Shown here: in pieces, positions 1,262 to 3,830 of the stretch
Numbering within the stretch: the stretch's first letter is position 1
How the letters are laid out: every line of letters starts with the position of its first letter
Source of the DNA: a virus
Taxonomy: Duplodnaviria > Heunggongvirae > Uroviricota > Caudoviricetes
Direction: 5' to 3' (one strand)
IMG/VR virus record: IMGVR_UViG_2740892235_000014
DNA length: 3,879 nucleotides
The notes under the pieces: model-generated
What the model was told of the DNA's origin: nothing
Databases searched by the model: none
The model's input: the letters and a program-made list of their open reading frames with translations, nothing else
Program-made: the position numbers and the translations under genes

Positions 1262-1310
1262 CAGATACAACGTGAAACAATGTGCAACAACGTGACACAA
1301 TCACGAACAA
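1262..1310. repeat. Array of about five 10-bp phased repeats (units ending in ACAA; consensus near YGTGMMACAA)
   Basis: ACAA recurs at 1267, 1277, 1287, 1297 and 1307, exactly 10 bp apart, with CGTG/TGTG cores in between. Helical-phase spacing suggests a protein-binding array (Int arm-type or AlpA/Vis sites). Confidence 0.5.
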
Positions 1311-1407
1311 GAGGCCAAAAAGAATACAGATTTGTAAGTTGCTGATTTTTAATGCTCAGCTGGTTTTTTATACATTAGTGAATTACGCGTTAAAGTGTGC
1401 GAAAAAA

Positions 1408-1438
1408 GGCATAAAACAAGATTTTATGCCTTTGTATT
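1408..1438. terminator. Putative bidirectional intrinsic terminator between int and alpA
   Basis: 9-bp stem GGCATAAAA / TTTTATGCC (1408-1416 / 1422-1430) with a 5-nt loop, flanked by an A6 run upstream and TTTGTATT downstream. The stem is AT-rich, so strength is uncertain. Confidence 0.45.
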
Positions 1439-1502
1439 AACATGAATTTAAATGATTTTATCCTGATTATTCCTCTTTCTGTAAACCATGCGACACCAAC
1501 AT

Positions 1503-1531
1503 TTGCCAACTCTGAATCATCCTGACACAAT
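1503..1531 (+). promoter_or_regulatory. Candidate sigma70 promoter for alpA (TTGCCA -17- CACAAT)
   Basis: -35 TTGCCA at 1503-1508, 17-nt spacer, -10 CACAAT at 1526-1531, about 60 nt upstream of the alpA start. The -10 is weak and alternatives exist. Confidence 0.3.
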
Positions 1532-1563
1532 CAGACACATCCCAACGCAATAGAACACGAAAT
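1524..1563. repeat. Second 10-bp phased repeat array (GACAC / GACAC / AACGC / AACAC) overlapping the candidate alpA promoter
   Basis: The pentamers start at 1524, 1534, 1544 and 1554. TGACACAATCA also occurs in the first array (1293-1303) and here (1523-1533). Confidence 0.4.
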
Positions 1564-2969: not shown

Positions 2970-3149
2970 TTATTCTGATTCTTTGGCCTTGCGGCGCTGG
3001 CGGCGTTTGATCTCGCCTTCAAGTGCCGAAACGATAAATTGCCCTGTACTTTCGCCATCTTCCTTTAAATTTTCTACAGCATCAGCTATTGCGTGTGGTA
3101 CTCGAGCCTCAAGCTTTTTGGATTTTGCATTAACTGCTTTTGTTGCCAT
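2970..3149 (-). CDS. Arc-type ribbon-helix-helix DNA-binding protein (59 aa), putative transcriptional repressor
   Basis: Internal start ATG at 3149 with SD GAGGAA 8 nt upstream. The protein MATKAVNAKSKKLEARVPHAIADAVENLKEDGESTGQFIVSALEGEIKRRQRRKAKESE aligns with phage P22 Arc as I remember it: RWP-REVLDLVRKVAEENG-RSVNSEIYQRV versus RVP-HAIADAVENLKEDG-ESTGQFIVSAL. The 106-aa extension in the ORF track has no SD and a hydrophobic junk-like N-terminus. Confidence 0.7.
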   Translation of the reverse strand: MATKAVNAKSKKLEARVPHAIADAVENLKEDGESTGQFIVSALEGEIKRRQRRKAKESE

Positions 3150-3170: not shown

Positions 3171-3251
3171 GTGGCTGACAGTATACACACAAGAAAACGG
3201 AAAAACACTATTGACGTGGCTGACACCCGTTACTAATATAGTGGCTGACAC
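3171..3251. promoter_or_regulatory. Three direct repeats of GTGGCTGACA (3171-3180, 3216-3225, 3241-3250): candidate operator array
   Basis: Exact 10-mer three times in the divergent intergenic region. Copy 2 lies in the spacer of promoter P2 and copy 3 at its predicted transcription start. RHH proteins typically bind direct or inverted repeat arrays. Confidence 0.5.
3211..3239 (+). promoter_or_regulatory. Sigma70 promoter P2 (TTGACG -17- TAATAT) for the plus-strand operon
   Basis: -35 TTGACG at 3211-3216, 17-nt spacer, -10 TAATAT at 3234-3239. It has the same position relative to the family B hairpin and ATG as P1 has in copy 1. Confidence 0.55.
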
Positions 3252-3820: not shown

Positions 3821-3830
3821 NNNNNNNNNN
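3821..3830. other. Assembly gap (10 N)
   Basis: Ten consecutive n characters. Contiguity and reading frame of 3831-3879 relative to the upstream sequence cannot be assumed. Confidence 1.

Follow-up and report, generated by a model that had tools for sequence, protein, structure and literature searches.

Two arrays of short direct repeats, both phased at 10 bp, occupy the 374-bp spacer between the co-oriented int and alpA genes in a 3,879-nt stretch of DNA from the IMG/VR virus record IMGVR_UViG_2740892235_000014 (the whole stretch is hereafter called the window). We suggest, with a probability of about 60%, that array 1 (1261-1310) and array 2 (1521-1570) are operator arrays for AlpA, the small protein encoded immediately downstream, akin to the arrays read by the dual-function recombination directionality factors (RDFs) Vis, Apl and Cox. 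The window makes up the left terminus of an element of ~15.5 kb inserted in tqsA in Escherichia coli O145:H28 12E115, which by its gene order and flanking repeats, and as known here from sequence, is a capsid-forming Gram-negative phage-inducible chromosomal island (PICI). The same motif, with the same phasing, recurs in both attachment-site (att) arms of the island, where it adjoins a separate 12-bp repeat that likely serves the integrase, Int, and again upstream of the capsid gene. This appears to be an unmapped case of a well-known kind, namely operator arrays for a protein that is both RDF and transcription factor.

Two phased repeat arrays between int and alpA

Array 1 lies on the + strand between the int stop codon and the likely int terminator, and consists of five direct 10-bp units, ACAGATACAA, CGTGAAACAA, TGTGCAACAA, CGTGACACAA and TCACGAACAA, with the consensus YGTGRAACAA. 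Its ACAA tetramers begin at 1267, 1277, 1287, 1297 and 1307, exactly 10 bp apart, which bears out an initial annotation of the window that had described ACAA recurring every 10 bp at 1267-1310. Tandem Repeats Finder (TRF) reports a period of 10 at 1267-1300 with a score of 47, and the lag-10 autocorrelation in the best 50-nt segment over the array, 0.625, is the maximum of the window, where the background has a mean of 0.28 and a standard deviation of 0.085. None of 1000 dinucleotide shuffles of the spacer reached 0.625, and none contained two or more segments at or above 0.55.

Array 2 has the same orientation as array 1. It begins with a strong unit, CCTGACACAA, and a weak one, TCAGACACAT, followed by CCCAACGCAA, TAGAACACGA and AATAACTCTT, which are CA-rich and periodic only in RAC.C. 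The pentamers GACAC, GACAC, AACGC, AACAC and AACTC begin at 1524, 1534, 1544, 1554 and 1564; the 10-bp phasing that had been described for GACAC/AACAC-type pentamers at 1524-1563 therefore holds, but the third pentamer is AACGC rather than AACAC. The lag-10 autocorrelation over array 2 is 0.55-0.575, the second highest jointly with an AT-rich stretch at ~1431-1483, and TRF did not report the array even at a score of 30. As had been noticed, TGACACAATCA is common to both arrays (1293-1303 and 1523-1533). An exact 11-mer repeat nevertheless arose in 150 of 5000 spacer shuffles (3%), so that the sharing by itself is modestly unusual. Because TRF misses array 2 and the shared 11-mer is only modestly unlikely, we regard array 1 as a strong and array 2 as a weaker periodicity.

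Homologues of the spacer are present in 878 of the 5426 complete E. coli genomes, with identities of ~80% in O157 islands and ~70% in the prototype EcCICFT073, and the repeats are retained in these homologous islands. Among 57 unique variants, which share descent and whose counts are therefore not independent, conservation of the array 1 AACAA cores is 90% or higher, as against 40-80% for the four to five intervening positions. The same pattern of fixed cores and drifting spacers is seen in an alignment of 13 diverged copies (A1), and the CFT073 group has six units. Since the cores are fixed at a fixed spacing while the positions between them drift, array 1 has the appearance of a protein-binding array, and we consider it very probably a functional protein site. 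Array 2 differs among relatives by 10-bp and 5-bp indels that arose via slippage of CCCAA, which indicates that its downstream units are loosely constrained; two strong units are present in the CFT073 and O157 lineages. Array 2 is probably also a functional protein site, a judgement we make with clearly less assurance.

Helical phasing had been taken to imply either protein binding on one face or intrinsic bending. The conservation pattern speaks for the former, whereas the latter is rejected: the units contain AACAA and no A4 tract, and a wedge model with approximate parameters, by which the window averages 16 degrees, puts array 1 at 12-19 and array 2 at 6-13 degrees. The curvature prediction that had been proposed as a check thus came out average or below average over both arrays.

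The same motif recurs in the att arms and before the capsid gene

Three ACAA tetramers at 10-bp spacing occur seven times, in four places, in the 27.8-kb locus that contains the island (L001, which includes 12 kb of flanking chromosome and in which arrays 1 and 2 lie at 13261-13310 and 13521-13570), against 0.00 expected. All four places, of which array 1 is one, are inside the island, and none is in the flanking chromosome. Between the att core and int there is an array in the opposite orientation (the int-proximal arm, L001 11899-11932), and the distal arm carries three phased ACAA copies at 27198-27221. A further array of TTGT/ACAA motifs stands right after the perC terminator (19614-19675, with the ACAA run at 19644-19667) and ends at the -35 position of a TATTTT element that has no -35 hexamer, before the capsid gene; by this layout it stands at the place expected for an activator of the packaging operon. 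Conservation is uninformative for the capsid-upstream array, as the relatives are at least 95% identical there.

The att-proximal regions of related elements, whose comparison had also been proposed, give the same picture. We compared four islands at three chromosomal sites, with L001 in tqsA and the O157, elppa6 and CFT073 islands at two other sites. In the latter three islands, runs of three or more ACAA at 10-bp spacing flank int on both sides and occupy the distal arm, with none elsewhere, and the same motif and phasing are thus found in both arms of all four. A weight matrix was derived solely from att-arm units (13 distinct ones); by this matrix array 1 is the top match in L001, O157 and elppa6, three of the four islands, and the third in CFT073. 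In L001 array 1 scores 34.5, compared with a null maximum of 18.2, with three units at 11-12 bits and two flanking units at 4.5-5.9 bits. With the same matrix another, weaker array becomes apparent in the int-proximal arm, closer to the core than the first. For array 2 the units score, in order, 9.3, 2.2, -2.2, -1.1 and -9.3 bits; the array ranks fifth to sixth per island with scores of 10-16, within the genome-wide null, while a pair or triple of such quality is expected 0.002-0.003 times per 90-bp promoter zone.

Other 10-bp periodic repeats exist in the island. A GTGGGGA-type array at L001 18292-18362, just after repA, probably represents origin iterons. Replication iterons were rejected as an explanation for arrays 1 and 2, which lie 3.4 kb upstream of repA, the GTGGGGA array being a separate one. 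Near the right end of the island, four GTGAC copies form a periodic array (26805-26870), and a similar array is found in the elppa6 island.

A distinct doublet in the att arms follows Int

The att-arm arrays adjoin tandem 12-bp doublets, GGTGTAGTCACT twice in this island and GGTGTAGTTAAT twice in the others, and each arm array in L001 stands 10-20 bp from a GGTGTAGT doublet, as is likewise the case in the CFT073, O157 and elppa6 islands. The GGTGTAGTCACT doublets (L001 11942-11965 and 27241-27264, one in each arm) are ~89 bp and ~145 bp from the core. Across the four islands the doublets are confined to the two att arms, at four copies per island, and none was found in the int-alpA spacer. Among 22 loci, the doublet type (GTCACT or GTTAAT) tracks the type of the Int N-terminus (…SVKYLTSGK… or …SVRHSTSGL…). 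One identical AlpA protein occurs with both Int types, and the ACAA arm array is unchanged between them. The distal-arm doublets, 15 kb from int, switch type as well, which argues against mere linkage, in a comparison of four islands only. Because they track the Int N-terminus rather than AlpA and are absent from the spacer, the 12-bp doublets are likely the arm-type sites of Int.

Arm-type sites of Int are expected in the attP arms, no more than a few hundred bp away from the core, and their sequence should shift with the arm-binding domain. The doublets do shift in this way; the ACAA arrays do not, and arrays 1 and 2 are ~1.45-1.75 kb from the core (L001 11804-11812), with int in between. 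The initial annotation had proposed AlpA/Vis or Int arm-type sites that control excision. The AlpA/Vis part of this proposal is favored by the presence of the motif in the att arms next to the doublets, whereas the Int part is opposed by the covariation of the doublets with Int. Control of excision by the two spacer arrays finds no support either, as the copies placed for excision are outside the window. Arrays 1 and 2 lie ~1.45 kb or more from the att core and more plausibly control alpA transcription, for which autoregulation is on record in related PICIs (PMC6092414; PMC11773190), than excision itself.

The alpA promoter and the spacer

A consensus scan identified a candidate sigma-70 promoter for alpA on the + strand at 1503-1531, with TTGCCA at 1503-1508, a spacer of 17 bp, and a TG-extended CACAAT at 1526-1531. 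Hexamers, a spacing within the usual 16-18 bp and conservation are all present, and TTGCCA-17-(C/A)ACAAT is retained in 20 of 20 distinct promoter variants, including across a 10-bp deletion, in the lineage of which the next repeat unit serves as the -10. The candidate -10 lies within the first unit of array 2, in agreement with the overlap noted initially, and array 2 extends from about -17 to +33 relative to this promoter. Array 1 precedes the -10 by ~220 bp (220-224 or 232 bp, depending on the variant), and the two arrays are separated by ~21 helical turns.

Between the arrays is a hairpin with a 12-bp stem (1405-1433, AAAGGCATAAAA / TTTTATGCCTTT; inverted repeat I19, 100% complementary), with an A-run before it and a T-rich tail after it. 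It is likely the int terminator, to judge from its structure and position, and possibly a bidirectional one; it separates array 1 from the alpA promoter. The hairpin is present in 13 of 13 aligned relatives, with 87% of cells paired. No double-sided compensation was found by formal count in these 13 relatives, in which the CFT073 group is one column off in alignment A1; an A-U to G-C replacement is suggested by eye only. Just upstream of the -35, the AT-rich stretch at 1431-1483 is periodic at 10 bp (TGAtT units, TTAACATGAAT TTAAATGATT TTATCCTGATT; TRF 1437-1460, period 10; autocorrelation 0.575), and it might serve as an upstream element or be bound by a nucleoid protein. It also contains a second match to a promoter, TTAACA-16-TATCCT, which is weak. 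The G+C content of the spacer core (1312-1500) is 0.317.

The longest open reading frame (ORF) of the spacer varies in strand, length and sequence, and no small ORF is conserved among the 57 variants. There is no credible Rfam match in the spacer; a known RNA was rejected, as the sole match, BSnc120, scores 27.9 bits where the gathering threshold is 114 and in essence corresponds to the terminator hairpin. The fold of the int 3' region is only mildly unusual (z = -1.98). A perfect 16-bp palindrome, CAGTATGCGCATACTG (1237-1252), comes immediately after the stop codon of int and the T-runs; conservation extends over the group of the window and O157 but not to the CFT073 group.

AlpA as the probable reader of the arrays

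The alpA gene (GTG at 1593 to a stop at 1781, + strand, with a ribosome-binding site AAGGGGG at 1581-1587) encodes a protein of 62 aa of the AlpA/Vis/TorI family (PF05930, E = 5e-18). The product matches PDB 8c3t, 'AlpA family phage regulatory protein' (E = 2.6e-6), for which no describing paper was found. Members of the AlpA/Vis family act as excisionases (PMC5148205; PMC11773190). In EcCICFT073, AlpA activates the promoter of its own gene and not Pint, and its overexpression alone, without a helper phage, leads to excision and replication; helper phages switch on alpA via an unidentified factor (PMC6092414). Positive autoregulation was also found with an alpA-lux fusion (-449 to +50) of EcCIMP1 (PMC11773190), and induction of the capsid-forming PICI EcCIEDL933 requires alpA (bioRxiv 10.1101/2022.09.08.507074). 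Across E. coli PICIs that retain the motif, AlpA is 92-98% identical.

The arrangement of the arrays is that of RDF sites. RDFs bind cooperatively and head-to-tail to direct repeats one helical turn apart, of which ~3 adjacent ones are needed; they discriminate poorly and spread into neighboring DNA, and those with dual functions (Apl and Cox) use similar arrays at att and at promoters (PMC7498355). Head-to-tail repeats one turn apart make up both arrays here, the motif and its arrangement recur in the att arm by the Int sites, and a small DNA-binding protein of an RDF family is encoded next to them. At least three adjacent units are present in array 1, and array 2 on its own falls short of this number.

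We propose that AlpA would polymerize head-to-tail, and cooperatively, on YGTGRAACAA units one helical turn apart. At the att arms (two int-proximal arrays and one distal array, beside the Int doublets) AlpA would direct excision, and a further AlpA array would lie upstream of the capsid/packaging operon. Arrays 1 and 2, which flank the alpA promoter region, would jointly mediate the AlpA autoregulation that has been measured genetically in related PICIs. Array 1, with five good units, would be a high-affinity nucleation site that autoactivates alpA, and its stimulatory effect might reach across the spacer of 32% G+C by bending, looping or relief of silencing. Array 2, in which one or two good units coincide with the -10 and start region and degenerate units follow downstream, would be a low-affinity site that fills later and caps alpA expression, as Vis does at PLL of P4.

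Several points weigh against AlpA as the reader of both arrays. Our search of the open-access literature found no paper that maps PICI AlpA sites and no binding data. Array 2 is weak, with a single strong unit and a triple of 11.3 that is inside the genome-wide null (mean 12.3), and a 5-bp indel in relatives breaks the phasing of its downstream units. A site over the -10/+1 predicts repression, yet the net effect of AlpA on PalpA is activation (PMC6092414). Array 1 and the promoter are 220 bp apart and separated by a terminator hairpin, and the conservation counts carry the dependence noted above. Covariation between AlpA and the motif is uninformative, as the distant homologues retrieved sit in differently organized elements; AlpA homologues 60-68% identical, from other genera and from IMG/VR (loci L018-L024 and L096-L106), have no array upstream of alpA. 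In those distant loci a conserved GC-rich hairpin with a T-run ends a few bases before the start codon, and TGTT(C/T)G arrays phased at 10 bp occur ~2.3 kb upstream of alpA in L098 and L100-L102.

Alternative explanations

The phased repeats might instead be read by another protein, such as an OmpR/PhoB-type regulator, a nucleoid protein, PerC or the YlcI/YnfO-like ribbon-helix-helix proteins. OmpR/PhoB-type winged-helix response regulators bind 10-11-bp tandem half-sites such as TGAAACA, and GAAACAA at 10-bp spacing seems to resemble the OmpR-type half-sites. The constancy of the motif across islands would be explained equally well by a conserved host factor, and the spacer core is AT-rich (32% G+C), with H-NS known to silence alpA in the Shewanella prophage CP4So (PMC5148205). 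However, we find another reader unlikely, as the arrays adjoin the Int doublets in both att arms, which is the position of the phased arrays in P4; the elppa6 island, without an annotated perC, still carries them; separate repeats (GTGGCTGACA three times) are found at the promoters of the ribbon-helix-helix genes; and no triple ACAA at 10 bp occurs in the flanking 12 kb of chromosome in L001. A helper-phage protein, perhaps a helper excisionase, might instead land on the spacer arrays and switch on alpA, much as P2 Cox activates the PLL promoter upstream of vis in P4, in which three exact 10-bp-spaced CTTTAA repeats, which we take to be P2 Cox binding sites, lie at 9176-9205 upstream of vis. 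Activation of alpA by helper phages (PMC6092414) and cross-talk between PICI and helper excisionases (PMC11773190) are both on record. Yet the motif stands in the island's own att arms and is constant in islands mobilized by different helpers, and AlpA alone, without a helper, activates PalpA and causes excision (PMC6092414), so we hold a helper protein as the reader to be quite unlikely. It would be tempting to go further and to see in the ACAA arrays all of the cis wiring behind the life cycle of Gram-negative PICIs, with readers besides AlpA: a helper excisionase-like protein would nucleate on array 1 or 2 and fire alpA, and AlpA filaments would then loop out and de-silence the AT-rich spacer. 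We regard this wider scheme as similarly doubtful; if true, it would reveal the long-sought helper 'inducer', comparable to P2 Cox at P4 PLL.

The remaining alternatives have less in their favor. That Int carries an arm-binding domain (PF13356), that arm-type sites are often tandem direct repeats, and that the motif is present in both att arms would all suit arrays bound by the Int N-terminal domain. This seems highly improbable given the distinct, arm-only doublet, which at four copies per island has core distances like those in P4 and in helper-embedded PICIs (HE-PICIs) and changes from GTCACT to GTTAAT with the Int N-domain type, in the distal arm too, while the ACAA arrays stay identical; moreover, the spacer arrays are far from the core and another array is at the capsid-operon promoter. 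The repeats might also have no protein-binding role at all; they would then be slippage products or intrinsically curved DNA, or array 2 would simply be an unstructured, CA-rich leader favorable to translation. Array 2 does vary by 5- and 10-bp slippage of CCCAA units, the alpA leader RNA has an unremarkable structure (z = -0.46), and CA-rich leaders can enhance translation. We nevertheless consider a role without binding very unlikely, since the cores are conserved while the spacers drift among the 57 variants, the oriented motif occurs at four or five places in the island and nowhere else in the 27.8 kb, the predicted curvature is average or below, and no spacer ORF is conserved.

Comparison with known systems

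The reading of the arrays as AlpA operators has its nearest counterpart in satellite P4, which likewise encodes a small AlpA-family protein (Vis) in an element with a P4-type int, and in which Vis regulates the promoter of its own gene. The order in the P4 attP is core, phased 10-bp arrays, 12-bp arm doublet and int, as in the PICI. In P4, nTCC(G/T) recurs every 10 bp, four and three times, at 3973-4045 between the core and the int-proximal doublet, and the annotated 12-bp 'attP arm sequence repeats' form TGGGGGCA doublets on both sides of the core (3942-3965 and 4151-4174). The phased ACAA arrays of the PICI arms, beside the likely Int doublets, are in the position of directionality-factor sites. 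Vis Box I/II in the P4 attP arm were reportedly described by Cali and colleagues in 2004. The two systems differ in that the motif is TCC-type in P4 and AACAA-type in the PICI, and in that vis is far from int and transcribed from PLL, whereas in the PICI alpA comes straight after int and five repeat units stand behind the stop codon of int. The net effect on the own promoter is repression for P4 Vis, in contrast to activation for PICI AlpA (PMC6092414). Works listed among the references of PMC7498355 reportedly show that P4 Vis bends att DNA, is required for excision and regulates int negatively.

The Apl protein of coliphage 186 and Cox of P2 also bind direct repeats with a spacing of 10-11 bp, which at att and in a promoter region are alike in sequence and arrangement, and they do so cooperatively on at least three adjacent operators, with low specificity and spreading (PMC7498355). 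This low specificity and spreading fits one strong and one degenerate array in the PICI. Apl and Cox nevertheless belong to another protein family and act between face-to-face lytic and lysogenic promoters, which they repress, while the PICI arrays flank a single positively autoregulated promoter. The P2 Cox boxes at P4 PLL (9176-9205) resemble the PICI in being a three-unit, exact 10-bp array upstream of a satellite vis/alpA-type gene, but they are read by a helper protein, whereas the PICI motif is also in the own att arms and AlpA alone is sufficient. In lambda, the Xis sites X1-X1.5-X2 are three head-to-tail sites one turn apart beside an Int arm site (PMC7498355); Xis has no promoter-proximal array for its own gene and is of a different protein family.

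The HE-PICI attP described by Tommasini, Mageeney and Williams (2023) is flanked around its center by co-oriented tandem 12-bp doublets, as here. The doubled motif lies at -81 and +132, and its binder was left open between Int and AlpA (PMC10111431). The doublet is TGTATTGC in HE-PICIs as against GGTGTAGT in this PICI, and the ACAA arrays are not in PMC10111431. In contrast, the Pseudomonas aeruginosa AlpA shares with the PICI protein only its name and a binding element within a promoter. It is a larger, Q-like antiterminator (residues to at least 142 contact DNA) that recognizes GGGACG between the -35 and -10 and enters the RNA exit channel (PMC9371919); it is not of the 62-aa Phage_AlpA family and does not bind repeat arrays. 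An antitermination model after this protein was rejected for the PICI, the protein being unrelated and larger and its element a single GGGACG (PMC9371919).

The element and other features of the window

The DNA of the window is identical to a chromosomal stretch in E. coli O145:H28 12E115 and other strains, and no DNA match to the window was found in the 'phages' collection. In the RefSeq annotation of the identical locus, the gene order is int, alpA, small regulator genes, an Icd-like gene, the RepA helicase, ssb and perC, after which come capsid, protease, portal, connectors, HNH, terS and terL, with no tail genes. Both halves of tqsA flank the element, with a ATAACAGCA repeat at each end. 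The int gene (1-1218, + strand) encodes a P4-type tyrosine integrase with an arm-binding N-terminal domain and a catalytic domain (PF13356, PF00589 and PF22022); in RefSeq the gene begins with a GTG located 12 nt before position 1 of the window.

Further downstream, a direct repeat of 75 nt (2218-2292 and 2902-2976, 80% identity) spans in each copy the gap from a minus-strand, ribbon-helix-helix-like ORF of the YlcI/YnfO family (2286-2465; 2970-3149) to the next minus-strand ORF (2025-2228; 2685-2912). The arrangement suggests a two-gene module that has been duplicated in tandem, its genes separated by a conserved GCGCCG...CGGCGC hairpin. GTGGCTGACA is found in three identical copies (3171-3180, 3216-3225 and 3241-3250) where the ylcI-like gene (minus) and the icd-like operon (plus, from 3344) diverge; these copies are a candidate operator of a different regulator, and the ACAA motif is hence not the island's sole repeat system. 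A run of 10 N at 3821-3830 breaks the last ORF of the window.

Implications

AlpA is the master switch of Gram-negative PICIs, which are abundant in E. coli, its expression being needed for excision, replication and transfer. A 10-bp consensus, together with a short list of arrays (in the att arms, after int, at PalpA and at the packaging operon), makes the AlpA regulon and the induction of alpA testable. The AlpA-type sites are now also separated from the Int doublets, whose binder earlier work on related PICIs had left open.

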